Of a DNA stretch of 23,087 nucleotides, positions 1 to 21,163 are shown in pieces; the stretch's first letter is position 1, and each line of letters starts with the position of its first letter. The notes under the pieces were generated by a model. That model made no database searches. It was not told the DNA's origin and worked only from the letters and a program-made list of their open reading frames with translations. The stretch is from Vulcanimicrobiota bacterium (GTDB taxonomy: Bacteria; Vulcanimicrobiota; Vulcanimicrobiia; Vulcanimicrobiales; Vulcanimicrobiaceae), in contig PKZK01000223.1 of NCBI GenBank assembly GCA_003133025.1, forward strand, positions 1 through 23,087. The letters run 5' to 3'. The translations under genes were made by a program, and so were the position numbers.

Positions 1-692
1 ACTTCACCGGTTCCGCTCAATTCGAGGTCGAGCGGGCCCGCGATGCGCGCCGCGTCGCCGGCTTCGAGCCGCTCGCCGTTGGCGACGATCGAACCGCTCC
101 CCACGAAGAGAAACGCCAAGCGGCCCGGCGGAAGCGCTCGCGCGAGCGTCGCACCGTCGACCCGCGCAACGTACGCGGTGGCGTCTTGCCAGAGGGCGAT
201 CTTGCTCTCGACGCCGCGTTGACCCGACGCGATCGGTAGCCATCGGTTGAGCCGGTCGTCCAGCGTGTAGTCGACCTGGCCATATCGCGGCGCGAGGCCG
301 GCGGCCGTCGGCAGCACCCACATCTGCACGAAGTGCACCGGCTCGTCCGCCGAGTGGTTGTACTCGGAATGCGTGATGCCGGTGCCGGCGCTGAGGTATT
401 GCACCCCGCCCGGCCGCACGACGCCCACGTTGCCCATCGAGTCCTTGTGTTCGAGTTCACCCTCGAGCACGTAGGTCAGGATCTCCATGTCGCGGTGGGG
501 GTGCGTGCCGAAGCCCTTGCCCGCTTGCACGGTATCGTCGTTGAACACGCGCAGCGCGCCCCAGTTGAGATTCTGCGGGTCGTGATAGTCGGCAAAGCTG
601 AACGAGTGGTGCGTCTGCAGCCAACCGTGATCGAAGGCGGCGCGCTCGCCGGCGCGCTGAATGGTGAAGGCGGGCGTGGTTTGAATCGGCAT
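1..692 (-). CDS. Pirin family protein (YhhW/quercetinase-like), 3' end runs off the window
   Basis: Not in the ORF track. Manual translation from ATG at 692 gives MPIQTTPAFTIQRAGERAAFDHGWLQTHHSFSFADYHDPQNLNWGALRVFNDDTVQAGKGFGTHPHRDMEILTYV, with the pirin HSFSF and HPHRDME metal motifs. GAGG SD just upstream. Confidence 0.93.
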   Translation of the reverse strand, partial: MPIQTTPAFTIQRAGERAAFDHGWLQTHHSFSFADYHDPQNLNWGALRVFNDDTVQAGKGFGTHPHRDMEILTYVLEGELEHKDSMGNVGVVRPGGVQYLSAGTGITHSEYNHSADEPVHFVQMWVLPTAAGLAPRYGQVDYTLDDRLNRWLPIASGQRGVESKIALWQDATAYVARVDGATLARALPPGRLAFLFVGSGSIVANGERLEAGDAARIAGPLDLELSGTGE

Positions 693-750
693 GGTGCCTC
701 GTACAACCGCAGAGGGGTTGCAGAGCGTTTCACCCGTCGGCGTTCTCGAC

Positions 751-2964
751 CTACGTGCCCTTCTCAGCACCGAAATAATGGATAAACTTCAGCACGAAGC
801 CCGGCGTGGTCGAGAGCTGGCTCGCGTCGCCGTAGCCCGCGTAGATCTCGTCGTGCGGCGAGCGATGGTGGTACGCGGCGGAGAGATTCCAAGCGCCCGT
901 GCAAGGCGGCGCGATGCCCGGGCGTACCACGTACACCGTCGTGCAGTTGACCGGCGCCGCGTTGAAGATCAAGGGCGGGGTCCCAACGATGCGGCGCACC
1001 CCGAGCGCGAACGAGGAGTCGGCCGAAATCGTGTATCCGTAGCTGGCGCGTTCGAGCCACTGCACGTTGGTGCCGCCCGCGTCGAGGTACTGACGCGTAT
1101 CGTCGGCTTCGAGCGAGAGCGTGCCGCGCATGCCGGCGCGCATCGTGGTCGCGCGTTGCCACGAGTCGAGGCGGCCCGGCCCGAAACGTCCGGTGTTGAA
1201 CGTGATCGAGGTCGGCGTCGAGGAGCCGCCGTGGTTGGGGAAGTTGCCCGCACTGTTGGCCGTGCCGCTATGCCACACGAGCCCGACACCGTTCTGGGAA
1301 ATGGGCGAAAAGATGCACGCGGCGGCCACGCAACCCGACTGCTGCAGCAGATAGCTCGAGCCGATCGAGGCCTGCACGTCGATGCGGCTCTTGGTCAGCG
1401 CGTCGAAGTTCAGGGCGCTATCCGACTGGTCGAGCGCTCCGAACATGTTGTGGTAGCGATCGATGAAGCCGGACACGCCGACGCTGTTGAAGGGCGATTT
1501 CTGATCGAAGGTCACGATCTTCACCCCGTAGAGGCCGTACCCCGCAATATCGGGATGCTGAACGAGACCATCGGCCGGATCGTAGTAGAGTCCCACCTTG
1601 CGCGACGAGAACGCTATGCCTTCGTTTTGATCGTAGAGAAAGAAGCCGCCGTCGTAGCGTTGGGCCTGATTGGGAATCAGCACCTGGTTTCCGCTATCGC
1701 TGCCGTAATCGAAGTAGGCGTCGAGATGCTTGCCGTCGTTGTACGAAAGGCCGTTGGCGAAGGTATAGTCGTGCACGAGCGGCGCGTCGAACTGGCAGTT
1801 CGTCGTGCCGGCCAGATTACAGTTCGCGGCGATGTTTTCCATGAAATAGCGCCAATGGTTGTCGCTGCTGGTATAGCCGAATGACTCGGCGGCATCGCTG
1901 CGTCCGTCGCCGACGGCGTCGAAGGCTGCGAACTGCAACTGTCCCTGGTGACCCGCCGCGGCAAAGCCCTCGCGGGGCGTCGGGATGTTCGGCGAGTACA
2001 GGTTCGAGAGCCCGGGGCACGCGTCGCAATCGAAATTGTCGAAGTAGTTGTTTGCTTGCGTGAAAAACGGCCGTACCTCGGTGAAAAAGCGGGGGAAGGC
2101 GGTAGGCGAGATCGTCGATTGATCGACCTCGACGTTCGAGAAGTCCGGGTGTACCGTGCCGAAGAGCGAAGCCGTCTGCGTAATCGGCAGCGAGAAGTCC
2201 GCGCCGGCACGTGAGGTGGTCAGGCCCGAGGCGGGCGAGCCCAGGGCGCCCAGGCCGTAGACGCCGACGCGCGGTTTGGGTTTGGCGGCGACGGCGGGCT
2301 TCATGCCTTTGAGCGCGCCGGCGAAGGTGACGTCGTCGCCGTTGCTCTGCGCGGGCGAATACGACCAGATCTGCCGTTCGCCCGTCGAGCGCACGACGCG
2401 CACGAACTGCACCTTCCAATCGGCGCCGCTGCCCGTGCCGCGCATGATCTCGAGCGGAATCTTCATCGTGACCGTGAAACCGCCGTCGTAATTCGCGCCA
2501 AACGACTGCCAGGTGGGCTGGTAGCCCGTGTTCTCCGACGAGTACTGGAAGTGCGTGCCGTTCGACGTGGCCGCGAATTGATAGAAAAAGCCCTTATTGC
2601 CGTTGGGCCAGAGATCGACCCAGACTTCGTCGTCGGTTCCGTCGCCCACGTTGTTGGCGTGTTGCGCCTGCAACAGCGTCTCGCGTTGCTTGACGTCGAA
2701 CCGTGCGTAGAAGAACTTCCCGTCGGTCGCGAGGCGGGCCGTAGACAACTCCGACGACGGGCGCTGGTGCTGCACGTCCCAGGGAAGCGCGACGCCCGGA
2801 ACGGCCGTCCACGCGGCGGCATCGGCCGTTGGGTCGAGCGAGGGCGCCGCGGTCAGCGTCGTGATCGTCAGCGTGCCGAGCGTGGGGCTGAGTTCCGCCG
2901 CAGCAGCACCGGAGCCCGCCAGCGCGAACGCGAGCGCGGCAGTTGCAAGCATCGTGCGCATCAT
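751..2964 (-). CDS. Secreted or outer-membrane protein, CBM9-like N-terminal domain plus DUF5916-like region (737 aa)
   Basis: Signal peptide MMRTMLATAALAFALAGSGAAAA; CBM9-like segment (ARLATDGKFFYARFDV...DDEVWVDLWP); HPDFSNVEVD...FFTEVRPFF matches the DUF5916 PDFxxVExD...ExRPFF motif; beta-strand-rich C-terminus. ATG overlaps the upstream TGA (ATGA). The ORF-track extension to 3576 overlaps another gene. Confidence 0.7.
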   Translation of the reverse strand: MMRTMLATAALAFALAGSGAAAAELSPTLGTLTITTLTAAPSLDPTADAAAWTAVPGVALPWDVQHQRPSSELSTARLATDGKFFYARFDVKQRETLLQAQHANNVGDGTDDEVWVDLWPNGNKGFFYQFAATSNGTHFQYSSENTGYQPTWQSFGANYDGGFTVTMKIPLEIMRGTGSGADWKVQFVRVVRSTGERQIWSYSPAQSNGDDVTFAGALKGMKPAVAAKPKPRVGVYGLGALGSPASGLTTSRAGADFSLPITQTASLFGTVHPDFSNVEVDQSTISPTAFPRFFTEVRPFFTQANNYFDNFDCDACPGLSNLYSPNIPTPREGFAAAGHQGQLQFAAFDAVGDGRSDAAESFGYTSSDNHWRYFMENIAANCNLAGTTNCQFDAPLVHDYTFANGLSYNDGKHLDAYFDYGSDSGNQVLIPNQAQRYDGGFFLYDQNEGIAFSSRKVGLYYDPADGLVQHPDIAGYGLYGVKIVTFDQKSPFNSVGVSGFIDRYHNMFGALDQSDSALNFDALTKSRIDVQASIGSSYLLQQSGCVAAACIFSPISQNGVGLVWHSGTANSAGNFPNHGGSSTPTSITFNTGRFGPGRLDSWQRATTMRAGMRGTLSLEADDTRQYLDAGGTNVQWLERASYGYTISADSSFALGVRRIVGTPPLIFNAAPVNCTTVYVVRPGIAPPCTGAWNLSAAYHHRSPHDEIYAGYGDASQLSTTPGFVLKFIHYFGAEKGT

Positions 2965-3860
2965 GGCGTCGCTCCCTCGCTCGCGGCGGACACGATCTTC
3001 ATGGTCTTCAGCCGGATCAATTGCTCGAGCGTGGGATGTGCGAACCCGTGCGCTTCGACGCGCTCGATGAAGCCCGCGTCGATGCCGACCGAGCGCAGGC
3101 GCAGCACGTCCTCGAATCCGAGGTGCGCGTACCCGGCGTGCCCGAGGCCGAGCACGTAGGGCGCATCGACGTGCAGAGCGCGTGCGCGGATCGCATCGTC
3201 GGGCCCGGACAGGGGCAAACCGGCATCGCGCAGTTCCGAAAGGTATTGCGGCGACACGCCGAGCGAGCGCAGCGGAATCAATTGCTCGGGATCGATCGGT
3301 TCGGGCGCCGCAAATGCCGCTTGCATGGCGCGCATGTAGGGTCCGTCGATGCCGAGCGAGCGCAGCACGATCAGCATCCGGTACGAGAGGTGGTGGTAGC
3401 CCGCGCCGAACACGTCGTCGACGAAGTGCAGCACGAGGTTGACGACCGCAGCGAGCACGATGTCCGAGGCGCTGAGGTTGGTGAAGCCCCGTTCGCGCAT
3501 GCCCGCGACGAACGCATCGTTCGGCGTGAAGAGGAACGTGCCGGCGCCGTGGCTGCGACCCGCAAGTCCGCTGCACGCGAACGATCCGGCTTCGCGGCGC
3601 AGCACGAACTCGACCTGGCGCTCGCGCTCGGCGGCGAGCGCGTCGCGCAGGCCCAGCGACTCCGGATCGACCGGGAAGCTCGACGTGTCGCTCGAACCCT
3701 TCGGTTCGTCGACGACGAGCGTCAGATTTGCGCCCGCGCCGTTCGTCGACGTACGAATCGACCAGGTTCCGGGCACGTCGGCGAGCGCGGCGGGGCTCGT
3801 CAGGGCGAGTTGAACCAGCAGCAGTGCGCCTGCCGCGATAAAGCGAGCCGTTTTGAGCAT
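2961..3860 (-). CDS. Secreted protein with six ~29-aa helical repeats (299 aa), function unknown
   Basis: Signal peptide MLKTARFIAAGALLLVQLALTSPAALA; repeats such as YLSELRDAGLPLSGPDDAIRARALHVDAP and YVLGLGHAGYAHLGFEDVLRLRSVGIDAG; ATG overlaps the M56 stop (TAATG). Confidence 0.8.
   Translation of the reverse strand: MLKTARFIAAGALLLVQLALTSPAALADVPGTWSIRTSTNGAGANLTLVVDEPKGSSDTSSFPVDPESLGLRDALAAERERQVEFVLRREAGSFACSGLAGRSHGAGTFLFTPNDAFVAGMRERGFTNLSASDIVLAAVVNLVLHFVDDVFGAGYHHLSYRMLIVLRSLGIDGPYMRAMQAAFAAPEPIDPEQLIPLRSLGVSPQYLSELRDAGLPLSGPDDAIRARALHVDAPYVLGLGHAGYAHLGFEDVLRLRSVGIDAGFIERVEAHGFAHPTLEQLIRLKTMKIVSAASEGATP
2985..3512 (-). repeat. Protein-level tandem repeat, 6 units of 29-31 aa, in the secreted protein
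   Basis: Units start FVAGMRERG, FVDDVFGAG, YMRAMQAAF, YLSELRDAG, YVLGLGHAG, FIERVEAHG, each followed by an L(R/K)x(L/V)G(V/I)-like segment. Confidence 0.75.
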
Positions 3861-5950
3861 TACAGGATGCCGGTGACCTTGAGTCTGGTCAGCTCGTCGA
3901 CGCTGAGATGATGCATGCCGTGAGCGGCCGCACGGTCGATGAATTCGCCGTCTATGCCGATGGCGCGGAGTTGCTGCACCTGCTCGATGGTGAGATTGGG
4001 ATAGCCGGCGCGAACCAAACCTCGCACGTAGTCCGGGGACACGCCGACCGCGCGCAAGCCCTGCACGTCGGTCGGGCGCAAGTTCTTGAGCCCCGCCGAC
4101 GTCAGCCCGTCGACGTAGTCCGGCGTCACGTGAAGCGCTCGCAGCCCGGCCAGTTCGTCCGAATCCAGAGACGTTCCGAAGCGTCTGCGCATCGCGCCGA
4201 TGTACTCGGGTTCGATCCCGAGCGCACGTAATTTGATCAGATCGTGCACGGTGGGATGGGTCAGTCCCTCGCGGCGCAAACCGGCGATGAAGTCTCCGGA
4301 GACGCCGACCGACTTGAGCGCGACCAGATCGTCGACCGAGAGGTGCGAGTAACCGGCGCGGGCCAGTTCGTCGATGTAGTCGGGATCCTTGGCGTCGGCG
4401 ATGACCTCGGCTTTGTTGCTGGCCGCGTCGTGCAGTTGGTCGGCCAGATTCTCCTGGACGTTCGCAGCGTTCTCGGCGGCGAGCGCCTTGCGTTCGAGTT
4501 CCGCCGCAGCGCGCTGGACTTGCGCCTCGTTCACGATGACGGGCGCGGAGGGCACGATGATCAGCCGCAGGTTGGGATGCGGCGCCACCGGCGGATGCGG
4601 CGGCGACACCAGCGGATTCACCGCATGCAGCGTGACCTCGGGCGAGGCAGCGGCCGAGGGCGCGGGCGCCGGGACGGGCGCGGCAGGCGCGGTGGCCAGT
4701 TCGGCGGTGGCGGTTGCGAGCGCGACGACGGCGGCCTTCTGTTTTGCAGCGGCCGATACCGACTGCGCCTTCGGCGCGGCCGGCGAGGCGTGCGCCGCAA
4801 CCCCGGGCGCAGCGGGCGGCTGCGGCGGCTGGACGGTCACGTCGTAGGCGATCGAGGGAGACACGAGCGCGGCTACTGCGCCCAGCACGGCGACCACGGC
4901 CACCGCGGCGCCGGCCGGCCCGAACGAGGTGCGCACGCGAACGTCGCGCTGTTTGGAGAGCAGCCGTTCGATGCGAATCGACATGCCGCGCCGCGTGACG
5001 AACGCGCCGGGCGCGGTCATCGCGCGATGGGGCCACGCGGTGGTCTCGGCGACTCTCGCGAGACACGTCGCGTACGGCAGCGCATCGTTCTGTTGGAGCA
5101 CCCAATCGTCACAGGCGACTTCGCGTTCGAGATCGAGCTGACCGACGAGCCAAATGATGCCCGGGTTGAAAAAGAGCAGCGCTTGCGCGAAGCGCTCGAT
5201 GGCGTTGAACCAATCGTCGGCGCGGCGCAAGTGGGCGAGTTCGTGCAGCACGATGCTGTCGATATCGTGCGGATCGAGTTCTTGCAAGAAGCGCTCGGGC
5301 ACGAGGATCATCGCATCGAAGAGGCCGACCGCGATCGGGATGTCGATCTCCGGCGACGTGCACAGGCGCACGGAGTGCGAACCCGACGAGGCCGTCGCCC
5401 AGCGCCCGAGTTGCGCGCGATACTCGACGGAGAGCGGCAGCGCATCCCGCTTGAGGCGCTCGAGGTGGAGTAAACTGATCGCGAGACGGATCACCACGAA
5501 CGCCGCGCCGGCAAACCACAGGCCTGCGAGCACGAAGGCCAGCGCGCGCGGAATCGACAGGTTGAAGCGCGAGAACGTGGGCACCGAAAACGCCGGCGCG
5601 GAAGCAGCGGCCGACGGCGCCGCAGCGGCCGCTCCGTCGGGCACGCGCTCCGGCGCCGTCCGGCCCGTCGTGCGCTGCGGCAGCGAACTGACCGCGCCTT
5701 TGGGCAGCGACACGTCGTTCGCCGTCGCCGCGGCATCGGGCACGTGGCGCAGCGCGAAGCTTGCGGTGACGACGGGAAGGAGTAAGCTCGCGAAGAGCGC
5801 CGTCGCCAGCACCGAGTGTCGCGTCGTCGCGTTGGCGCCGGGCTGGAGGCGCAACACGAGCCAGGCTGCGAACGCGAAGAGCGGGGCCTGCCAAAGCCCG
5901 TCGATCAAGGTCGCGACGACGAACCGGACGACCGTTTCGAACTGCTCCAT
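3860..5950 (-). CDS. M56 family (BlaR1/MecR1-type) membrane zinc protease with Pro/Ala linker and C-terminal 29-aa repeats
   Basis: N-terminal TM helices, HELAH zinc motif, FFNP, EREVACDD and RIERLL motifs; directly downstream of blaI (TGATG overlap). No penicillin-binding sensor domain. Alternative GTG start at 5953. Confidence 0.9.
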   Translation of the reverse strand: MEQFETVVRFVVATLIDGLWQAPLFAFAAWLVLRLQPGANATTRHSVLATALFASLLLPVVTASFALRHVPDAAATANDVSLPKGAVSSLPQRTTGRTAPERVPDGAAAAAPSAAASAPAFSVPTFSRFNLSIPRALAFVLAGLWFAGAAFVVIRLAISLLHLERLKRDALPLSVEYRAQLGRWATASSGSHSVRLCTSPEIDIPIAVGLFDAMILVPERFLQELDPHDIDSIVLHELAHLRRADDWFNAIERFAQALLFFNPGIIWLVGQLDLEREVACDDWVLQQNDALPYATCLARVAETTAWPHRAMTAPGAFVTRRGMSIRIERLLSKQRDVRVRTSFGPAGAAVAVVAVLGAVAALVSPSIAYDVTVQPPQPPAAPGVAAHASPAAPKAQSVSAAAKQKAAVVALATATAELATAPAAPVPAPAPSAAASPEVTLHAVNPLVSPPHPPVAPHPNLRLIIVPSAPVIVNEAQVQRAAAELERKALAAENAANVQENLADQLHDAASNKAEVIADAKDPDYIDELARAGYSHLSVDDLVALKSVGVSGDFIAGLRREGLTHPTVHDLIKLRALGIEPEYIGAMRRRFGTSLDSDELAGLRALHVTPDYVDGLTSAGLKNLRPTDVQGLRAVGVSPDYVRGLVRAGYPNLTIEQVQQLRAIGIDGEFIDRAAAHGMHHLSVDELTRLKVTGIL
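3863..4378 (-). repeat. Protein-level tandem repeat, 6 x 29 aa, forming the C-terminal domain of the M56 protease
   Basis: YIDELARAGYSHLSVDDLVALKSVGVSGD / FIAGLRREGLTHPTVHDLIKLRALGIEPE / YIGAMRRRFGTSLDSDELAGLRALHVTPD / YVDGLTSAGLKNLRPTDVQGLRAVGVSPD / YVRGLVRAGYPNLTIEQVQQLRAIGIDGE / FIDRAAAHGMHHLSVDELTRLKVTGIL. Confidence 0.9.
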
Positions 5951-6336
5951 CACGAGTTCTCCTTCTCGTACTTCGCGATCAGCGCTTTGATCGAGGCCAA
6001 CTCGTCTTGCGACGGACGCTCTTCTTCCATCAAGCGCACCGCGAGCGCGGTTTTGCTATTCGAGAAGAACGAGCGCACGATGTCGGTCACGGCCGACGTC
6101 GCCGCATCGTCGCGTTGCACCAAGGCGTAGTAGATGTGAGCGCGACCCTCGGGAGTACGAGCGACGATTCCCTTTTGTTCCAAAATCCGGAGCATGGTGA
6201 GCACCGTGGTGTAAGCCAGCGGCGGGGGCGGCAGGGCGGCCACCACGTCGGCGACGCTTGCCCGCTCCTTCGCCCAGATCACGTCCATGATCCGCAGCTC
6301 GGCCTTGGTCAGGTGCTTGGTCTTCTTGCTCGCCAC
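5950..6336 (-). CDS. BlaI/MecI/CopY family transcriptional repressor (128 aa)
   Basis: LTKAELRIMDVIW...LAYTTVLTMLRILEQKG...GRAHIY winged helix; GTG start at 6336 after a G-rich SD; paired with the M56 protease. Confidence 0.93.
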   Translation of the reverse strand: MASKKTKHLTKAELRIMDVIWAKERASVADVVAALPPPPLAYTTVLTMLRILEQKGIVARTPEGRAHIYYALVQRDDAATSAVTDIVRSFFSNSKTALAVRLMEEERPSQDELASIKALIAKYEKENS

Positions 6337-6354
6337 GGGTCCCCCACGGGTCAA

Positions 6355-6372
6355 CTACTAGAAATCTAGTAG
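6355..6372. promoter_or_regulatory. Putative BlaI operator 1 (CTACTAGA-AA-TCTAGTAG)
   Basis: Perfect 8-2-8 inverted repeat, AT-rich in a high-GC background, over the predicted blaI transcription start. Confidence 0.75.
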
Positions 6373-6373
6373 G

Positions 6374-6402
6374 ACCATACATCGACTCCGTCTCCCTGTC
6401 AA
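6374..6402 (-). promoter_or_regulatory. Sigma70-type promoter for the blaI operon (TTGACA-N17-TATGGT)
   Basis: Minus strand: TTGACA at 6402-6397, 17-nt spacer, TATGGT at 6379-6374. Confidence 0.7.
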
Positions 6403-6417
6403 CTAAAACTTTAGTAG
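6400..6417. promoter_or_regulatory. Putative BlaI operator 2 (CAACTAAA-AC-TTTAGTAG)
   Basis: Same geometry and TAGTAG half-site as operator 1; overlaps the -35 hexamer. Confidence 0.65.
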
Positions 6418-6453
6418 AATGCCGGCGCCGCCGGCCGAGGCGCAAGATCGACA

Positions 6454-6490
6454 GACAAGTACCCTTGACATAATGACAAGCGTACTTTAC
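6454..6490. promoter_or_regulatory. Tandem putative XRE operators GACAAG-N4-CTTGAC (6454-6469) and GACAAG-N4-CTTTAC (6475-6490)
   Basis: Two imperfect palindromes repeated at 21-bp spacing, overlapping the -35 and -10 of the rightward promoter. Confidence 0.6.
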
Positions 6491-6493
6491 ACT
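6465..6493 (+). promoter_or_regulatory. Sigma70-type promoter (TTGACA-N17-TACACT), probably giving a leaderless mRNA
   Basis: TTGACA 6465-6470, TACACT 6488-6493, ATG 6 nt later at 6500, no SD. Confidence 0.7.
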
Positions 6494-6499
6494 CGTGGC

Positions 6500-6889
6500 A
6501 TGGAAAGAAACCGGCGTCTCGCTCAGCGCAGCTTCGTACTCTGGATGAGCGCATATGTGGTCACCGTGTTCGTGACGACCTGGTTTTTCAACAAGGGCTA
6601 CGTGCCGCAGGCGTTGCGCATTCCCGTGGGCCTGTTGCCGATGGTGCCCGCATTCGTCGCGGTCTTTCCGATCGTGGACGCTTACCGTAACCAAGACGAA
6701 CTGCAGCGGCGCGTGCAGTCGGAAGGCATCGTCTTCTCGTTCGTCTTGACCGCGCTGCTCACGTTCTCGTACGGCTTCCTCGAAGCGTACGCGAACTTTC
6801 CCAAGCTCAGCATGTTCTTCGTGTGGCCGGTGATGGCCGTGCTCTGGGGCGCGGTGGGCCAGCCGCTCGCGGCCCGACGCTACCGGTAA
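6500..6889 (+). CDS. Small 4-TM membrane protein of the type commonly paired with XRE regulators (129 aa)
   Basis: Four hydrophobic segments with a central DELQRRVQSE loop; start chosen at ATG 6500 from promoter position. Confidence 0.8.
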   Translation: MERNRRLAQRSFVLWMSAYVVTVFVTTWFFNKGYVPQALRIPVGLLPMVPAFVAVFPIVDAYRNQDELQRRVQSEGIVFSFVLTALLTFSYGFLEAYANFPKLSMFFVWPVMAVLWGAVGQPLAARRYR

Positions 6890-6891
6890 GC

Positions 6892-7089
6892 ATGAAGAAT
6901 CTGCTGCGTCAACTCCGCGCCGAACGCGGCTGGTCGCAGGCCGACCTCGGCGCGCAGCTCGAGGTCAGCCGCCAAACCATCAACGCGCTCGAGGTCGGCA
7001 AATACGATCCGAGCCTGCCCCTCGCATACAAGATCGCGCGACTTTTCGAGCGCACGATCGAAGACATCTTCATCTTCGAAGAAAGCTGA
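6892..7089 (+). CDS. XRE/Cro-CI family HTH regulator (65 aa)
   Basis: MKNLLRQLRAERGWSQADLGAQLEVSRQTINALEVGKYDPSLPLAYKIARLF is a typical HTH_3 sequence. Confidence 0.95.
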   Translation: MKNLLRQLRAERGWSQADLGAQLEVSRQTINALEVGKYDPSLPLAYKIARLFERTIEDIFIFEES

Positions 7090-11648: not shown

Positions 11649-13688
11649 CTACGGCGCGACCGGTTCGCTCTCCGTGGGCAGCGGTGCGAACAGCGCACCC
11701 GCCTCGTCGGGAGCCGGTTCCACGCCCGCCGGACGCAGGTGACGCACGAACCAGTGCGCGATCGCGCGCAGACGCAACACGCGATTGCGCGGCTTGCCCG
11801 TGCGCGAGAGGTTGTGTCCGTCGTCGGTGAAGCGCACGAACTCCACCGGCGCGTTGCGCAAGCGGCTGAGCAGCGTGAAGAGTTGCTCGCCCTGATCGAT
11901 CGGGCAGCGATAGTCGCGCTCGGAATGCTCGACCAGCAGCGGCACCGCGATCTTTTGCGCGGCGCGCATCGGCGACATCTCGAAGAGTTTCCGGCCGCCG
12001 TCGTCCCACGGCGCGCCGACTTCGTTTTCCAAGAACCAGCCGAGGTCGGCCGCGCCGACTTCGCTGACCAGATCGTTGACCGCGCGCATCGACACGCCGC
12101 AGGCGAAGCGCTCGCTGTGCCCGAGCAGCCAGGTGGTCATGAAGCCGCCGTACGAACCGCCCGCGAGCCCGACGCGCGCCGGATCGATCGTCGCGTTGGC
12201 CTGCGCGCCGTCGAGTAACGCGAGGACGTCGGCGGCGTCGAGGCCGCCCCAGTCGCCGGTGATCGCGTCGGCATAGGCGTGCCCGTAACTCTGACTGCCG
12301 CGCGGATTGCCGTAGGCTACGCCGATGCCGTGCGAGGCGAGCATGTGGAACTCGAAACAGAACGCGAAGCCATAGGCCGTGTGCGGACCCCCGTGCACTT
12401 GCAAAACCCAGGGCGCGCCGGCGGCGGGCTCGGGATCGAGCAAAAAGAGATCGAGCACCGTTCCGTCGGCGGCTGCGGGCCGCACGCGGCGCGGCGCGCG
12501 AACGATGCGCTCGGCGAGCCACGGATTGCAATCGGTCAGGCGCTCCTCGTTTCCGTACGGATCGAGCAACGCGATCTCGCTCGGCACCGTCGGGGTCGAA
12601 TAACCGAACGCGAGCGTGCCGTCGTCGGCGCGCGAGAACGCATAGATGTCGCGCTCGCCGCTCGCCGCAAGGCGATGTCCCGAGCCGTCGCGCGCGAATG
12701 CGGCGATGGCGCACGCGCCTTCGGAACACAGCGGAACGAAAAGTTCGCGGTCGCCGCCCGACCAGATCGGCGCCTGTTGACCGCCGACGCCCTTGATGTC
12801 GCAGATCACGTAGTCGGTGACGGGCCGGTCCACGCCGGCCGAGAGGGAACGCACGGCGCCTCCCGCGACGGGCACGATCAGCAACTCGTGGTTGTAGCGG
12901 CCGCCGACATCGCCGCCGCGTTCGTGTCCGATGAAGGCGATCTCGCTGCCGTCGTGCGAGAACGCGGGCAGTTGCATTGGGCCGGTCGATCCGGTGATGC
13001 GGCGCGGTTCGCCGCCCTCGCGAGCGACGACGAAGATGTCGCGTAAGAACGACTCTTCGGGCACGCCGATGGCCGCATCGAAGGCCAGCAGCGTTCCGTC
13101 GGGCGACCAGGCCGCGTGCAACGCATCGAAATCACCGAACGTCAAGCGGAGCGGTTCGGTGCCTGCGCCCGGTTCGCAGACGTAGAGATGCTTGCGCCGT
13201 CCGTCGAGCAGACCTTCGTCGTCGCTCTTGAAGGGCAGCGCGCGAATGTGCCGAGCGCGCGTGCGTTCGTCGACCGCGATGCGCGCCGTCTTCGCGTCGA
13301 GCGGCGCGACCGCGGAGTAGGCGAGAAAGCGGCCGTCGGGCGACCACGCGGGTGCGAGGATCGCATCGTACTCAGGCGTAACCGCCTCGGCCTCGCCGCC
13401 GTCGAGCGGCGCAACGAAGATGCGCCGGGTCGCGGGCGCGCCGCCTTCGCTCGTGCGAACGAACGCGAGGTGCGTGCCGGCAGGCGAAACGCGCGGACTC
13501 CGATCGAACGTACCCGAGGTGAAGCGTCGCGGCGCGCCGCCGGCGCGCGCGCTCCAGATCGACGTCCGCGTCCGGTCGCTTTTTTCGTGCGCCGTCGACA
13601 GCACGTAGAAGACGCGGCCGTCGGGAGCGCACGCCGGTTCTCCCGGCAACGCGAGGACGTAGAGGTCGGTTGGAACCAACGGCTTCAT
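11649..13688 (-). CDS. S9 family peptidase (acylaminoacyl/dipeptidyl aminopeptidase-like)
   Basis: WSPDG propeller repeats, HGGPH, GGSYGG nucleophile, DYRC Asp, GHNLSR His. Confidence 0.93.
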   Translation of the reverse strand: MKPLVPTDLYVLALPGEPACAPDGRVFYVLSTAHEKSDRTRTSIWSARAGGAPRRFTSGTFDRSPRVSPAGTHLAFVRTSEGGAPATRRIFVAPLDGGEAEAVTPEYDAILAPAWSPDGRFLAYSAVAPLDAKTARIAVDERTRARHIRALPFKSDDEGLLDGRRKHLYVCEPGAGTEPLRLTFGDFDALHAAWSPDGTLLAFDAAIGVPEESFLRDIFVVAREGGEPRRITGSTGPMQLPAFSHDGSEIAFIGHERGGDVGGRYNHELLIVPVAGGAVRSLSAGVDRPVTDYVICDIKGVGGQQAPIWSGGDRELFVPLCSEGACAIAAFARDGSGHRLAASGERDIYAFSRADDGTLAFGYSTPTVPSEIALLDPYGNEERLTDCNPWLAERIVRAPRRVRPAAADGTVLDLFLLDPEPAAGAPWVLQVHGGPHTAYGFAFCFEFHMLASHGIGVAYGNPRGSQSYGHAYADAITGDWGGLDAADVLALLDGAQANATIDPARVGLAGGSYGGFMTTWLLGHSERFACGVSMRAVNDLVSEVGAADLGWFLENEVGAPWDDGGRKLFEMSPMRAAQKIAVPLLVEHSERDYRCPIDQGEQLFTLLSRLRNAPVEFVRFTDDGHNLSRTGKPRNRVLRLRAIAHWFVRHLRPAGVEPAPDEAGALFAPLPTESEPVAP

Positions 13689-13741
13689 TCTCGGCGCTTG
13701 CCGCGAGGATTCACCGAATCCTCGTCCGTACGAAGCCCCGT

Positions 13742-14605
13742 GTGAATCGAGGCGCGTTTATCGGGTCGGCCCTGGCCGCGGCAGTACCGATACCGGCCGG
13801 CGCGGCCGATCTGCGGTCCGAAGTGGTCAGCGCGGCGGAGTATTCGACGGGCGTGGTCGGCGCCTACGCGCGCAGCCTGGGTCACTCCGGTTCGTTCAGC
13901 TACAACGCCGACGAACGCTTCCCGTCGGCCTCGGTGATCAAGGTCCTGATCATGACCTGCGTCTTCGAGGCCTACGATCGCGACCCCGAACTGCTCGCGC
14001 ACAAGGTTAAGCTCGAGTTGTCCGACTTCGTGGGCGGTTCGGACATCCTGCAGAATTACAATCCGGGAGATCTCGTCTCGGTCTCGCTGCTCGTGCACGC
14101 GATGATCGAGCAGAGCGACAACACCGCATCGAATGCGTTGATCACGATGCTCGGCTTCGAGCGCATCGCCGCGACCGCCCGGCGCGCCGGTTTGCACCGC
14201 ACGCAACTGAAGCGGCACTTCATGGATTTCGCCGCCATCGTGCATCACAGCAACAATCTGACGACCGCGCACGACATGGGCTCGCTGCTGTATCAGATCG
14301 AGCGCGGCGCGCACGAAGGCGTGCCGACCGTAGCCTCACCGGCGTCGTGCCGCAAGATGATCGACATCATGCTGCACCAGGAAGACCGCGACAAGATCGT
14401 GCGCGGTCTGCCGCGGGGCGTGCCCGTTGCGAACAAGACGGGCGAGATCGACGGCGTGCGCAACGACGTCGCCATCGTCGATCCCTATGGCGAAGCGCCC
14501 TACGTGCTGGCGGTGCTCACCAAGGATCTCAACGACTTCTCCAACGGCGTCATCGCCATCCGGCGCATCGCCAAAGCCGTCGACGTCGCCTTCAGAACCG
14601 GCTGA
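13742..14605 (+). CDS. Class A beta-lactamase-like serine hydrolase (Beta-lactamase2 family)
   Basis: SVIK (SxxK), SDN and KTG motifs; GTG start with Tat-like leader MNRGAFIGSALAAAVPIPAGA. Beta-lactamase activity not established. Confidence 0.85.
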   Translation: MNRGAFIGSALAAAVPIPAGAADLRSEVVSAAEYSTGVVGAYARSLGHSGSFSYNADERFPSASVIKVLIMTCVFEAYDRDPELLAHKVKLELSDFVGGSDILQNYNPGDLVSVSLLVHAMIEQSDNTASNALITMLGFERIAATARRAGLHRTQLKRHFMDFAAIVHHSNNLTTAHDMGSLLYQIERGAHEGVPTVASPASCRKMIDIMLHQEDRDKIVRGLPRGVPVANKTGEIDGVRNDVAIVDPYGEAPYVLAVLTKDLNDFSNGVIAIRRIAKAVDVAFRTG

Positions 14606-16061: not shown

Positions 16062-17339
16062 TTGTTCGAACAGACATCCGGCATAATCGAGCGGGACGAT
16101 TTCTGCTCACTTGCGCCGATCGGGTGGCTGCATCACAAGATGCAGGACTCGTTCTTCTTGGTGGTCGGCACGGGTTCGTGTCAGGGCTTCTTGCAGACCG
16201 CGCTCGGCGTGATGATCTTCGCGAAGCCCCGCTTCGCGACGGCCGTCCTCGGTGAGGACGATCTCAGCGGCGCCGACCCGCTGACCGGTCTCCTGCCATT
16301 GGTCGAAACGATCGTCGCCGAACACGCCCCGAGCGCCATCTTCCTGGCCTCGACCTGCACGCCCGAGATCCTCAAGATGAACGTTTCGGGCTGCGCCGCG
16401 CCGCTGGAAGCGCGTTACGGCGTGCGGGTCTACCCGTGCCGCCTCGACGGCTTCGACTCGGCCTACACGATCGGCGAAGATCACGTGCTGCAGTCGATGC
16501 TCGAACGTTCGCCGCAGACCGATGAGAAGAACCTGGTCGTCCTGGGTTGCCTCTCGGCGCTCGAAGAGTCCGAGATCCGCGTCGAATGCGCCGCGATGGG
16601 CTTGCCCGTTCCGCGTTTTTTGCCCGCGGAGAGCGCGCTCGATCTGCCGCCCGTGGGTCCGAACACGGTGCTGGCGCCGGTCCATCCGTTTCTCTTCCAG
16701 AGCTGCGCGTGGGCGCAGCGCGAGCGCGAGACGCCGATGTTTCGCTCACTCTTCCCCTACGGTCCGGACGGATCGCGAAATTTCTACGAAACCCTGGCGG
16801 CCGCGTTCGGCAAGACCGTCTCGTACGAAGCGCGCGAGCGCGAGACGTGGGCGGCGGTGGAACGCGAGGTGGCCGACCTGCGCGGCCGCTCGATCGCCTT
16901 CGCCTCCGACGCACTGGTGGAGTTGCCCCTGGCCCGGACGTTGCGCGCGGCCGGCGCGCGCGTCGACTTCATCAGCACGCCGCAGATCTACAAAAAATTC
17001 CACGCCGCCGAGACCGCGGCTCTGACGGGCGTCGAAATCGTGGAACGGGCCGACCGCTTCCAAACCTTCGCCCGGCTCTCCGAACTCAAACCCGACCTGG
17101 TCGTAGCCAACCTCAACATCGCCAACGCCCTGGAGGGCATGGGCTTCACCGTGAAATGGTCGACCGAGTTGACCTTCCAACCGGTACACGGCTTCAGCAG
17201 CGCGGGCTCGCTCTTCGGGCTGTTCACCTCGACGCTGCGCCGGCACGACGCGCTGGCCAAACGCCGTCTCGAGGACGCCGTGCCGGCCAAGCCGATCGAT
17301 CTCGATTTCTTCCGGGTCGGCGCGAAGGCGCGCGCATGA
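16062..17339 (+). CDS. bchN: Dark-operative protochlorophyllide reductase subunit N
   Basis: FCSLAPIGWLHHKMQDSFFLVVGTGSC, LGVMIFAKPRF, STCTPEILK, FPYGPDGS, KWSTELTFQPVHGF; three cluster cysteines (C15, C40, C99). TTG start forced by an in-frame TAG at 16056-16058. Confidence 0.92.
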   Translation: MFEQTSGIIERDDFCSLAPIGWLHHKMQDSFFLVVGTGSCQGFLQTALGVMIFAKPRFATAVLGEDDLSGADPLTGLLPLVETIVAEHAPSAIFLASTCTPEILKMNVSGCAAPLEARYGVRVYPCRLDGFDSAYTIGEDHVLQSMLERSPQTDEKNLVVLGCLSALEESEIRVECAAMGLPVPRFLPAESALDLPPVGPNTVLAPVHPFLFQSCAWAQRERETPMFRSLFPYGPDGSRNFYETLAAAFGKTVSYEARERETWAAVEREVADLRGRSIAFASDALVELPLARTLRAAGARVDFISTPQIYKKFHAAETAALTGVEIVERADRFQTFARLSELKPDLVVANLNIANALEGMGFTVKWSTELTFQPVHGFSSAGSLFGLFTSTLRRHDALAKRRLEDAVPAKPIDLDFFRVGAKARA

Positions 17340-18868
17340 AGCTCGCGATCTGGTCCTATCAAGCTCCGGGACACGTCGGCGTTTCGAAGGCAGCCGCCTC
17401 GTTCTCGGGCATCCACTGCGTTTTGCGCGCGCCCAAGGGCGACGGTTACGGCACGATCATGCTGGCCATGTTCGAGCGTCTCGGCGTCGTGCCGCCGCTT
17501 TCGATTTCGGCGCTCTCCGAAGCCACGCTCGCCGGCGCCGCCGCAGATTTGCCCATCTTACTGCGCGACGTCGACGCCCGCCACAACCCCGAAATGATCG
17601 TGGTGACGCGCAGCGCGACGGCGAGCGTGCTGCAAGAGCCGCTCGACGGCGAGATCGCCATGATGGCGCCGGGCAGCATCAAAGCCGAAATTTTTCAGGC
17701 GTCGGCGCACCCGGTGCGCGACGACGAGACCAGCGCCTTCGCCCTGACCACCAAAGAGCTCGTGGCGCACTTCGCGCAGGACGTACCGCGCAGCGACGGG
17801 CCCTCGGTCAACATCATCGGCCCCTCGCTGCTGGGCTTCCACGACCGCTCCAACGTCGAGTCGTTGCGCCGCGCGCTCGACGCCCTGGGCGTTGAGGTCA
17901 ACGTCGTGTTGCCGCTGGGCGCCTCGCCCGACGACCTGCGCCGCATCGGCCGGGCTTGGGTGAACATCGGCACCGCGCGCGAACTGGCGCAGCCCACGCT
18001 CGAATTCCTCGAGGGCCGTTTCGGCACGCCCTGGGTGCGCGAACTTCCTTACGGTGAGGCCGGCACGACGCGCTTCCTGCGCGAGCTGTGCGCGCTGTGC
18101 GAGATTCCCGCCGACCGCATCAAGGCCGCATCGAAGGACGCCAACCTGCTCTGGTACGCGCGCACCGTCGACGCGCACGCGCTCTCTGCGAAGCGCGTCG
18201 GGGTGTTCGGCACGCCGACGACGGCCGCCGGCATCGCGCGGACGCTGCGCGAGGAGCTGGACATGCGCGTCGAGTTCGTCGGCACGTACGTCACGGCGTG
18301 GGGACCCTGGTTGCGCGAGCGCGTCGCCGACATCACCGACGACGTGCTGATCACCGACGACTACCGCGAGGTCGCGCGCGCCATCGACCGTACCCGGCCC
18401 GACATCATGTTCGGCTCGCAGATGGAGCGGCACTCGGCGAGCGCACTCGGCGTGCCGTGCGCGGTGGTCTCGCCGCCGGCGCACATCTTGAACTTTCCGC
18501 TCGGCTATGCGCCCTTCATCGGCTACGACGGCGCCAACCACATCGGCGACCTGGTCAACACGACGCAAGTGCTCGGCCTGGAACACCACCTGATCGAAAC
18601 CTTCGGGCCGCGCAATCAAGGCCGCTTCGCCGACGCCGCGCCGGAACAGAGCGAAGTGCCGTCGCCGGCCGGAACGGCCGCAGCGTCCGCGGCCGTCGAC
18701 GACGGCGCTCCGCAGTGGGATGCGGCGGCCGAACGCTTGATGCAGCGCGTGCCGTTCTTCGTGCGCAAGAAAGCCCGCAACAACATCGAGAAGTACGCGC
18801 GCGAACGCAACATCGCGGTGATCGACGAGGCGGTCGTGGTCCGCGCCCGCGAGCACGTCGGCGGATGA
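17336..18868 (+). CDS. bchB: Dark-operative protochlorophyllide reductase subunit B (510 aa, divergent)
   Basis: MKLAIWSYQAPGHVG, APKGD (Asp36), SVNIIGPSLLGFH, WYARTVD, FGSQMERH, PFIGYDGAN, LGLEHHL and a C-terminal PCP_red domain (VPFFVRKKARNNIEKYA); ATGA overlap with bchN. Confidence 0.92.
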   Translation: MKLAIWSYQAPGHVGVSKAAASFSGIHCVLRAPKGDGYGTIMLAMFERLGVVPPLSISALSEATLAGAAADLPILLRDVDARHNPEMIVVTRSATASVLQEPLDGEIAMMAPGSIKAEIFQASAHPVRDDETSAFALTTKELVAHFAQDVPRSDGPSVNIIGPSLLGFHDRSNVESLRRALDALGVEVNVVLPLGASPDDLRRIGRAWVNIGTARELAQPTLEFLEGRFGTPWVRELPYGEAGTTRFLRELCALCEIPADRIKAASKDANLLWYARTVDAHALSAKRVGVFGTPTTAAGIARTLREELDMRVEFVGTYVTAWGPWLRERVADITDDVLITDDYREVARAIDRTRPDIMFGSQMERHSASALGVPCAVVSPPAHILNFPLGYAPFIGYDGANHIGDLVNTTQVLGLEHHLIETFGPRNQGRFADAAPEQSEVPSPAGTAAASAAVDDGAPQWDAAAERLMQRVPFFVRKKARNNIEKYARERNIAVIDEAVVVRAREHVGG

Positions 18869-19857
18869 GCCTGCCGCAAAAGGCGCCGCAGCGCTCGACG
18901 CTCGAAGATTCCGCACGGGCCACGGTACAAACCGTGGGCAGCTTCGGCGCGATGATGCTGCCCTTCGCCGACCGCGATGCCGGCGCGGCGCAGATCAATT
19001 CGTCGCTGCGCACCTTCGCCAAGCCGGGAACGTGGTTCGCTCCGATGTGGGCGATTCTCGTCGGCGCGGTCGCCGGCGGCGCCGAGTGGAACCTGCCCTC
19101 GGTCGGCAAGATTCTGCTCGGCATGGTGCTGGCCGGTCCGCTGCTCTGCGCCTTCTCGCAGGTGCTCAACGATTGGTTCGATCGCGACGTCGACAGCATC
19201 AACGAACCGAACCGTCCGACCGTGTTGGGCAAGCTCGGGGCCCTCACGGTTTTTTGGACGGCCATCGGTCTGGCCGCCGCCGCGATCGCGGTTGCGACGA
19301 TCTTGGGCCGGCTCGTCCTCGCGTGCACCTTTGCCGGACTCGCCCTGGCATACATGTATTCCGTTCCGCCGTTCCGGCTCAAGGCGCACAACGGCTGGCT
19401 GGCCAACGGCGCGTGTGCGTTCGCCTACGAAGGTTTTGCCTGGATCGCCGGCGCCGCGATCTTCCATCACGTCACCTACGGCACGGTGGTGCTCGCCTCG
19501 CTCTACTCGCTGGGCTCGCACGGGCTCATGACGCTCAACGACTTCAAGAGCTACGCCGGCGACAAACTGCTGGGCTTCAAATCGTTGCCGGTCATGCTCG
19601 GGCTCGACGGCGCGCTCACGACGGCCTTCATCTTCATCGACGTCTTCCAGGGTCTGGCCATCGCCTACGTCGTGCTCCATCGAATGTTCCTCGCGGCCGC
19701 GGTCATGGCCGTCCTCTTCCTCATCCAGTTGCCCATGCAGCGCAAGCTCTCAACCGATCCGGCCGGTCTCGCTCCGTGGTATTGCGCGAGCGCCATCCCG
19801 CCGTTCGTCTGGGGCATGCTCGTTGCGGCATTGGCCATTCGCTCCGGAGGTTTTTAG
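18865..19857 (+). CDS. bchG: Bacteriochlorophyll a synthase (UbiA family, BchG/ChlG)
   Basis: KPGTWFAPMW, NDWFDRDVDSINEPNRP, YSVPPFRLK, YEGFAW, HGLMTLNDFKS, GFKSLPV; ATGA overlap with bchB. Confidence 0.92.
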   Translation: MSLPQKAPQRSTLEDSARATVQTVGSFGAMMLPFADRDAGAAQINSSLRTFAKPGTWFAPMWAILVGAVAGGAEWNLPSVGKILLGMVLAGPLLCAFSQVLNDWFDRDVDSINEPNRPTVLGKLGALTVFWTAIGLAAAAIAVATILGRLVLACTFAGLALAYMYSVPPFRLKAHNGWLANGACAFAYEGFAWIAGAAIFHHVTYGTVVLASLYSLGSHGLMTLNDFKSYAGDKLLGFKSLPVMLGLDGALTTAFIFIDVFQGLAIAYVVLHRMFLAAAVMAVLFLIQLPMQRKLSTDPAGLAPWYCASAIPPFVWGMLVAALAIRSGGF

Positions 19858-19861
19858 TCGC

Positions 19862-21163
19862 ATGAAAGTCATCGTCGTCGGTGCAAACATCGGAGGCAGC
19901 ATCGCTGCGGGAGATCTGGCGGCCAGCGGAGCGGACGTGCTTCTGGTCGAGCGCGATCTCAAACGCAAGAAACCGTGCGGCGGCGCGATTCCGCCGCGCG
20001 CGGTCAGCGAGTTCGGCGTGCCGAGCGAGATCATCGAACGCAAGGTCAGGCAAGCCGTGGTCTACGGGCCGAGCGAGAGTTGCGTGGAGATGGACGTGCG
20101 CGGCACGCGTCCGCGCGCGGAAGATTACATCATCATGGTCACGCGCGAAGTGCTCGACCGCACGATGCGCGAGAAGGCCACGCAGGCCGGTGCCGAGTTG
20201 CGCGAAGCGAGCTTCGTATCGCACGAAGAGACCGCCGACGGCGTGCGCGTGACGCTGCGCTACCGCGGGGGCCGCGAAGAGACGATCTCCGCCGACTACG
20301 TGATCGGCGCCGACGGCGCCGGATCGGCCGTGGCGCGTTCGTGCGGCCGGCCGGCAGCGCGCCACGCCTCGGCGATTCAAGAGCGGCTCTATCTGCCCGA
20401 CGACGCGATGGAGTTCTATTCGACCCGCGCCGAGCTGTATCTGGGCGACGACATCTCGCCCGACTTCTACGGCTGGGTCTTTCCCAAGAGCGATCACGTT
20501 GCGGTCGGAACCGGCTGCCGGCCCGAACACGCCAACCGTTCGTACGCGTTTCTCGAGGGCGTCAAGGCGCGCGCCGGCGACAAGTTGCGCGGCTCGCGAC
20601 GGCTGCTGCTCGAAGGCCACCCGCTGCCGATGCAACGCTACAAGAAGTTCGTCTACGGCCGCACCATGCTCGTCGGCGACGCAGCCGGGCTCGTGGCGCA
20701 CACGTCCGGCGAAGGCATCTATTTCTCGATGGCCTCGGGCCGCATGGCCGCCCAGACGCTGATGGCGCACGTCGGCGACCCGCGCATGGCCCTCACCCGC
20801 TACGAGAAGACGTGGCAGCGGAAGTACGGCTCGATGTTCGACTTCCTCGAAGTGCTCGAGAAATGGTCGTACACGAGCAACAAGAAGCGGGAATTCTTCG
20901 TCGACATGTGCGCCACCAAAACGGTTCAGGAGTTGACCTTCGACAGCTATCTCTTCAAGGAGATGGCCAAGGTCCAGCCGGCGCAGCACGCATCGATGGT
21001 CATCAACGGCGTCAAGGCCGCGCTGAGCAACTGGATGCACCCGAAGTCGCCGGTAGCCGATCGGCCGCCGCAGATCACGGCCAAGGAAGCGTTGGTCCTG
21101 ACCAAGCGCGCCGTAAGCGACGGGGTCGGCGTCGAAGATCACCACTACGCGAACGCGGGCTGA
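19862..21163 (+). CDS. bchP: Geranylgeranyl reductase (433 aa)
   Basis: KPCGGAIP, REVLD, IGADGA, SPDFYGWVFPKSDH, GDAAG...SGEGIYF, FVDMC...VQELTFDSYL; ATG 4 nt after the bchG stop. Confidence 0.93.
   Translation: MKVIVVGANIGGSIAAGDLAASGADVLLVERDLKRKKPCGGAIPPRAVSEFGVPSEIIERKVRQAVVYGPSESCVEMDVRGTRPRAEDYIIMVTREVLDRTMREKATQAGAELREASFVSHEETADGVRVTLRYRGGREETISADYVIGADGAGSAVARSCGRPAARHASAIQERLYLPDDAMEFYSTRAELYLGDDISPDFYGWVFPKSDHVAVGTGCRPEHANRSYAFLEGVKARAGDKLRGSRRLLLEGHPLPMQRYKKFVYGRTMLVGDAAGLVAHTSGEGIYFSMASGRMAAQTLMAHVGDPRMALTRYEKTWQRKYGSMFDFLEVLEKWSYTSNKKREFFVDMCATKTVQELTFDSYLFKEMAKVQPAQHASMVINGVKAALSNWMHPKSPVADRPPQITAKEALVLTKRAVSDGVGVEDHHYANAG

Follow-up and report, generated by a model that had tools for sequence, protein, structure and literature searches.

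The closest described relatives of the system reported here are the BlaI/BlaR1 and MecI/MecR1 pairs of Staphylococcus aureus, which, in the sections of the source consulted, share with it a Penicillinase_R repressor, an M56 gluzincin protease with HExxH and ExxxD motifs, an extracytoplasmic domain after the last transmembrane (TM) helix and a palindromic operator at the promoter (PMC9834060). CenIR of Clostridioides difficile is likewise a non-beta-lactam BlaIR pair with a small envelope regulon, in which induction is strongest for an adjacent gene that encodes an exported protein described as unique to C. difficile; in the available parts of that paper the CenR tail is short and mostly unstructured, and the exported target is not described as a copy of the sensor (PMC13492132). 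The InterPro survey in the same paper counts about 15,000 M56 proteins and finds no beta-lactam sensor in about 94% of the BlaR-like proteases.

We analysed a probable four-gene operon in the 23,087-nucleotide contig PKZK01000223.1 of a Vulcanimicrobiota bacterium (assembly GCA_003133025.1; the whole contig is hereafter the window), which encodes a BlaI-family repressor, an M56 membrane protease, a signal-peptide protein with the same 29-amino-acid (aa) repeats as the protease (the twin) and a predicted outer-membrane barrel protein. We propose that this operon is a penicillin-sensor-like switch for an envelope signal, with the secreted twin as the likely sensing partner. Unlike BlaR1 and MecR1, the window M56 has no penicillin-binding domain; it bears a repeat ectodomain on a linker of about 150 aa and is accompanied by a secreted paralogue of that ectodomain. 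In contrast to those of BlaI and MecI, the predicted targets do not include a beta-lactamase; they are a Toastrack protein and an outer-membrane barrel. The protease would belong to the "no identifiable domain" class of the M56 survey, the consulted sections of which mention neither repeat ectodomains nor a twin or a barrel (PMC13492132). The first-pass annotation of this DNA, made from its letters alone, knew of no characterised system with such a layout. As non-beta-lactam BlaIR proteins have been published and are the majority, the class of system is not new; a literature search (thin on subscription journals) returned no description of the repeat ectodomain, the twin layout or the barrel regulon.

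The BlaI-M56 circuit and its predicted operators

Translation places blaI, M56, twin and barrel in that order on the minus strand, with stop and start codons that overlap at the three junctions (TGATG, TAATG and ATGA), as the first-pass annotation had read them. Judging by this arrangement, the four genes probably form one operon, with two palindromes on its promoter. A contig assembled from a public run covers positions 1-6444 with 46 substitutions and no gap (this run may be the source sample), and in RNA runs three short RNA contigs match M56 and blaI, which is uninformative.

The repressor, encoded directly upstream of the protease, scores 104.5 bits against the Penicillinase_R family PF03965 (cut-off 22.6), and the protease scores 98 bits against PF05569 (cut-off 31). 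The HExxH motif at 236-240, D245 and E277xxxD281 of the protease align (8EXP/8EXS) with H201/E202/H205, D210, E242 and D246 of BlaR1, residues described there as catalytic or essential (PMC9834060). Both protease and repressor look functional. At cut-off, Pfam returns Peptidase_M56 alone for the protease, which thus has no recognisable transpeptidase (penicillin-binding) domain, and the NF000326 model reaches 73 bits against a cut-off of 400; the non-beta-lactam system announced by the first-pass annotation is borne out on this point. In the hydropathy profile three hydrophobic segments exceed the threshold, the last of them at 346-364, consistent with a multi-pass protein whose C-terminal domain would, by analogy with BlaR1, be extracytoplasmic.

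The operator pattern [AC]CTA-N6-TAG[GT] occurs upstream of 18/18 blaI genes (window and 17 relatives; double in seven), from which regions it was derived, so that its independent test is what else it finds. It has 12 matches in the 3.35-Mb genome of the organism, and in the relatives it uncovered 10 further blaI-M56 paralogues. It also lies at the gene start of 22 of the 70 barrel homologues found in the 17 scanned relatives, where its genome-wide density predicts 0.06 (an underestimate for intergenic DNA); the 70 are the near-full-length homologues in pattern-scanned genomes. Eleven of them stand inside blaI-M56 operons (one is also counted among the 22), and 26 of the best-scoring 28 have an operator site or lie within such an operon. 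From this excess we propose that BlaI regulates the barrel, which is a likely output of the system. Only sites at gene starts were counted, because the strict pattern shows no genome-wide enrichment over a reversed control and also catches a palindrome upstream of a GntR-ABC transporter operon (G000:C214:24719, L045), which is likely that regulator's own site.

The organism's genome (80% complete) contains one blaI match. Its only other strong operator overlaps the -35 box upstream of a DUF4097 Toastrack gene, a candidate unlinked target; Toastrack domains have been tied to envelope-stress systems, yet are predicted to be intracellular (PMC11237479, in the part consulted). A conserved Toastrack link was rejected, since none of six weak homologues in the 17 relatives has a listed operator site. 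Double operator sites were also seen upstream of an msrA-type gene in two relatives, of which L068 alone was scanned. Acidobacterial-type loci carry a different palindrome with the same geometry (55/57); on that side, one double operator stands upstream of what we take to be a MacB-like permease (L235).

The secreted twin and the 29-aa repeats

In its AlphaFold2 model the twin consists of a signal helix, a six-stranded beta domain of about 86 aa (the N-domain), which the window M56 lacks, and six two-helix repeats. Among 156 retrieved proteins, which are the top-scoring matches and no census, 87 are of M56 type: 70 have the N-domain and the repeats fused to the protease, 17 have the repeats alone, and none is a repeats-N-repeats (Rosetta-type) fusion of M56 and twin. 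Because 70 of these 87 proteins fuse both parts, the twin would be the usual full ectodomain produced as a free protein. None of 59 M56 genes adjoining a twin has the N-domain, a figure biased by the use of the free protein as query, and none of six fused blaI-M56 loci (the whole sample) has a twin within a 12-kb stretch. For four of five N-domain-less M56 proteins with no adjacent twin, the same genome encodes a free N-domain protein at another place. In fold searches the twin had no clear counterpart, and its N-domain tied with PAS/GAF and streptavidin folds at Z scores of about 5; structure matches of the N-domain in the Atlas belong to the same unnamed family and to M56 fusions, and an Atlas search with the N-domain alone gave no usable named match by features.

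The period-29 autocorrelation peak is 1.51 in the M56 and 0.29 in the twin, far above the maxima of 200 shuffles (-0.26 and -0.23, respectively). The six units per array described by the first-pass annotation are thus confirmed, with a 31-aa unit 3 in the twin, and so are the MxxxxF of unit 3 and the AHGxxH of the last unit. The colinear order it also described is moderate: the colinear pairing of tethered and free units ranks 18 of 720 permutations overall and first of 120 for units 2-6. The long Pro/Ala linker after the last TM helix of the M56 stands as claimed (Table 1); its median length is 130 aa in 13 own-class M56 proteins and 81 aa in 58 others. Tethered and free arrays of the same locus are alike (median rank 4 of 30), and on a tree of arrays the window pair are nearest neighbours. 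In acidobacterial pairs, the RxHG motif occurs in 69/70 scored twin units and in 19/58 tethered ones. Tethered repeats hold number and register across phyla, with 4-13 units detected in most loci.

The domain search suggested by the first-pass annotation returned no family for repeat or twin in Pfam, NCBIfam or PDB sequence searches, and a DNA-level tandem-repeat search did not detect the 29-aa repeat. The highest structural score, to BurrH (Z 5.5, root-mean-square deviation (rmsd) 14, 208 aligned residues), lies within the helical-repeat background; a profile match to an engineered TALE reached E 1e-5, and Foldseek on the twin found one designed protein only (TM-score 0.25). TALE/BurrH and mTERF proteins are likewise made of two-helix repeats, with weak matches, and differ from the window repeat in its 29-aa period and exported location. 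We therefore describe the repeat as a defined ectodomain fold, as predicted, with no named family or clear solved relative, in a family of 4,849 sequence clusters at 50% identity. Matches of the twin family to LytB, AbiEi and the like, and the Atlas names built on them, were discarded as noise (at most 6 of 51 members). The repeat also occurs in widespread single-pass proteins of 230-290 aa with a conserved C-terminal motif, unlinked to blaI (L213, L214-L220 and L225), and a related repeat family of about 350 aa is found at L221-L222.

The barrel protein, the conserved core and the surroundings of the operon

The last gene is predicted to encode a CBM9-fold domain (about aa 28-221) followed by an outer-membrane barrel of about 24 strands (aa 226-737), in a model with a confidence (pLDDT) of 84 and a predicted template modelling score (pTM) of 0.85. 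In this model, the N-terminal sandwich matches CBM9-fold chains with Z 18.6-20.4 (rmsd about 3, 175-189 aligned residues), and the barrel part matches MtrB, usher and TonB-dependent receptor barrels with Z of about 15. It thus shares its N-terminal fold with CBM9 proteins (1i82 of Thermotoga Xyn10A and 4jpq of Bacteroides) and differs from them in the fusion to a predicted barrel. The envelope protein was first annotated as CBM9-like/DUF5916; the fold is supported, whereas DUF5916 (PF19313) scores 19.3 bits in the window, below the gathering score of 22.6, which the homologues at L059 and L209 pass. Pfam gave no match to the TonB-receptor family. The first-pass annotation further proposed control of a carbohydrate-binding outer-membrane partner: control is likely from the operators, while carbohydrate binding finds no support beyond the fold. 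The position of Trp71 of CBM9-2, which we take to be a sugar-binding residue, is Val in a weak profile alignment (E 0.11) that leaves the second Trp outside. A second barrel homologue in the organism's genome (G000:C3:15085-16689, L044; an open reading frame that contains N and whose 5' part is unmatched) has no operator. The literature search found no paper on DUF5916.

A twin match was found in 19 of 60 relatives (17 when the unpublished genomes G048 and G020 are left aside), and in even samples of two phyla in 31/201 genomes (phylum of G061, unpublished G088 included) and 51/301 (phylum of G062). The succession blaI, repeat-bearing M56 and twin is kept in 16 of 20 own-class regions (three of whose M56 genes are in pieces) and, among 80 loci of other phyla (mostly Acidobacteriota), in 59, with one (43) or two (16) twins. 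The barrel adjoins 7/16 own-class triads (five downstream, one upstream with its own site, one divergent), and one further own-class locus has blaI-M56-barrel and no twin; no barrel homologue was found in the 80 loci or in 20 further acidobacterial regions. Hence, of the four-gene conservation expected earlier, a three-gene core holds, and the barrel appears to be an output restricted to the lineage, with one recurrence in another phylum, where a repeat M56 is followed by a Pfam-positive CBM9+DUF5916 gene (L209). No match to the pirin gene downstream was found in 20 relative loci. Acidobacterial twins are often followed by what is presumably an efflux membrane-fusion-like protein (L135, L138, L141, L146, L163, L166 and L173).

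A parallel version with pentapeptide repeats (blaI, pentapeptide M56, signal-peptide pentapeptide twin, barrel) occurs in 6/20 own-class regions, which were fetched around barrel genes and blaI paralogues, the pentapeptide label being read from the sequence pattern. Four of these six loci have the same operator type, and three more loci have no twin. In two pentapeptide-type operons a stand-alone signal-peptide CBM9-like gene follows the barrel (L086:1640-2593 and L088:1649-2383). Other paralogous M56 tails are, by local comparison, presumably HEAT-like or TonB-C-like (L055 being TonB-C-like), and a distant 1174-aa M56 (L211:3948-7469) fuses DUF4097, HEAT and the 29-aa repeat in a single chain.

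Table 1. Positions of the operon features, in the window unless another contig is named (G000, the organism's genome).
Feature	Position	Strand	Basis or remark
Predicted BlaI operator 2, palindrome overlapping the -35 box	6400..6417	.	28.5 bits, top position weight matrix site in genome
Sigma-70-type promoter	6374..6402	-	10/12 consensus matches, 17-nucleotide spacer; same geometry in relatives
Predicted BlaI operator 1, palindrome immediately downstream of the -10 box	6355..6372	.	21.6 bits
blaI-family repressor	5950..6336	-	128 aa; PF03965 E 5e-30; MecI/BlaI PDB matches
M56 membrane metalloprotease	3860..5950	-	696 aa; PF05569 E 7e-28; alignment to BlaR1 8EXP/8EXS; hydropathy
Ala/Pro-rich linker after last predicted TM helix (aa 369-522)	4385..4846	-	43% Ala+Pro over aa 369-520
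Six tethered 29-aa repeats of M56 (aa 523-696)	3863..4384	-	sequence autocorrelation, unit comparison
Signal-peptide twin	2961..3860	-	299 aa; AlphaFold2 model, mean pLDDT 87
Twin N-domain, six predicted beta strands (aa 28-113)	3522..3779	-	AlphaFold2 model, sequence comparison
Six twin repeats, each a predicted two-helix unit (aa 115-290)	2991..3518	-	autocorrelation, AlphaFold2 model
Signal-peptide CBM9-fold + outer-membrane barrel protein (predicted), DUF5916-like	751..2964	-	737 aa; structure model
DUF4097 Toastrack gene	G000:C187:13583-14425 (L043:7584-8426)		signal-peptide-like N-terminus; candidate unlinked target

Elsewhere in the window, a divergent unit outside the module (6419-7089, plus strand) encodes a membrane protein and an HTH_3 regulator and has its own sigma-70-like promoter at 6465-6493. 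A class A beta-lactamase-like protein with an SxxK motif is encoded at 13670-14605 (plus strand; 122 bits, cut-off 200); the genome scan (80% complete genome) found no BlaI-type operator at this gene. The genes bchN, bchB, chlorophyll synthase and geranylgeranyl reductase stand in a row at 16062-21163 (plus strand), as in a phototroph, which would agree with Eremiobacterota.

Possible roles of the twin

By homology and from the operator sites, the proposed circuit would run as follows. BlaI likely sits on the two palindromes, whereby expression of the operon stays low; on the envelope side, the N-domain and repeats of the twin likely recognise a ligand, for which a protein, peptide or glycan fragment that signals envelope damage is the most plausible candidate; the repeats of the twin would then pair with those of the tethered array; the zinc protease, with its intact catalytic residues, would cleave BlaI as BlaR1 does; and derepression would raise the sensor, the twin, the CBM9-barrel and, in the organism's own genome, the unlinked Toastrack gene. 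We hold BlaI repression, M56 cleavage and derepression to be highly probable. That the periplasmic sensor is split between tethered repeats and secreted twin is a proposition that we rate as evenly poised. The first-pass annotation had left the choice between a tethered solenoid that senses a ligand and one that pairs with the free protein as a decoy. The latter, in which sensing falls to the tethered repeats alone while the twin, once induced, binds and neutralises the same ligand in the periplasm to switch the response off, just as BlaR1 induces an enzyme that removes its own inducer, strikes us as somewhat unlikely. It accords with the place of the twin in a predicted BlaI-repressed operon, with the likeness of cognate arrays and with the recurrence of the design in the six pentapeptide loci, but leaves unexplained why the fused-N-domain loci have no twin and why all 59 M56 proteins beside a twin are N-domain-less. 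It is this complementary distribution of the N-domain that makes us favour the split sensor.

Several observations weigh against the split sensor and the circuit built on it, in addition to the query bias and the small fused-locus sample mentioned above. The genome with the N-domain-less M56 of L209 yielded no N-domain protein, and free N-domain proteins with no blaI or M56 nearby are common (14 loci in one set and 21/80 loci in another, some of them contig-cut), the acidobacterial palindrome being found at 0/14 and 0/13 of such loci checked. Nor is the repeat confined to M56 systems, for a Bacteroidota/Rhodothermota-side sample contains single-pass proteins that bear it with no link to blaI. 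In the window, degeneracy is greater in the repeats of the twin than in those of the protease. On the tree, the two kinds of array are intermingled (9 changes, at least 5 forced), and 0/200 bootstraps show two clades, repeat-register errors being possible; this intermingling implies repeated duplication or exchange and fits the decoy equally well. As to the circuit, the repressor residue aligned with P1' of the MecI/BlaI cleavage site is Leu, a position at which Phe is nearly invariant in BlaI (PMC9834060, in the part consulted). Lastly, paralogous BlaI systems share the operator in the relatives, so that the barrel sites found there are unassignable to the repeat system alone.

Two further explanations give the twin a lesser part. 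In the FecA-FecR-FecI system, an outer-membrane barrel is co-regulated with an inner-membrane transducer bearing a periplasmic domain. A similar relay, in which the repeats would reach across the periplasm on the long Ala/Pro linker and read the state of the CBM9-barrel, either directly or through the twin, would draw on the association of the barrel, by adjacency and operator, with BlaI-M56 proteins of different ectodomains (29-aa repeat and pentapeptide), on its recurrence at L209, on the long own-class linker and on the presumed TonB-C-like tail of the paralogous M56 at L055. It would differ from FecA-FecR-FecI in its proposed output (repressor proteolysis), and neither Pfam nor NCBIfam finds an ECF sigma or anti-sigma factor among the four operon genes. 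We consider such a relay quite improbable, given that the acidobacterial loci lack the barrel, that strict operators in five genomes reached via mostly acidobacterial loci marked only their own operon, a predicted ABC permease and one site with no clear gene, and that the barrel is no recognised TonB-dependent receptor. Most doubtful of all is a twin that protects the envelope as an effector in its own right, with the M56 tail as a captured copy whose role is only tethering or vestigial: many free and membrane-anchored repeat proteins do stand alone without M56, and one stand-alone repeat gene (L041) has its own operator, but across phyla the tethered repeats keep both number and register, and they follow their cognate twin.

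Returning to the split sensor and its operon, the parallel versions raise the idea of a general three-part BlaIR form, in which a swappable repeat ectodomain (29-aa helical, pentapeptide or HEAT) on a periplasm-spanning linker would pair with a secreted copy of itself and read the state of a CBM9-fold outer-membrane barrel under control of the same repressor. We judge this generalisation doubtful; if true, it would be a protease-based trans-envelope relay that parallels FecA-FecR-FecI and is built from unrelated parts. The locus itself offers an ectodomain fold, a predicted operator from which a reporter could be made, a set of predicted target genes and a candidate accessory subunit, whereby the question of what orphan BlaIR systems sense becomes directly testable, and DUF5916-like outer-membrane barrels would for the first time be placed in a functional context.

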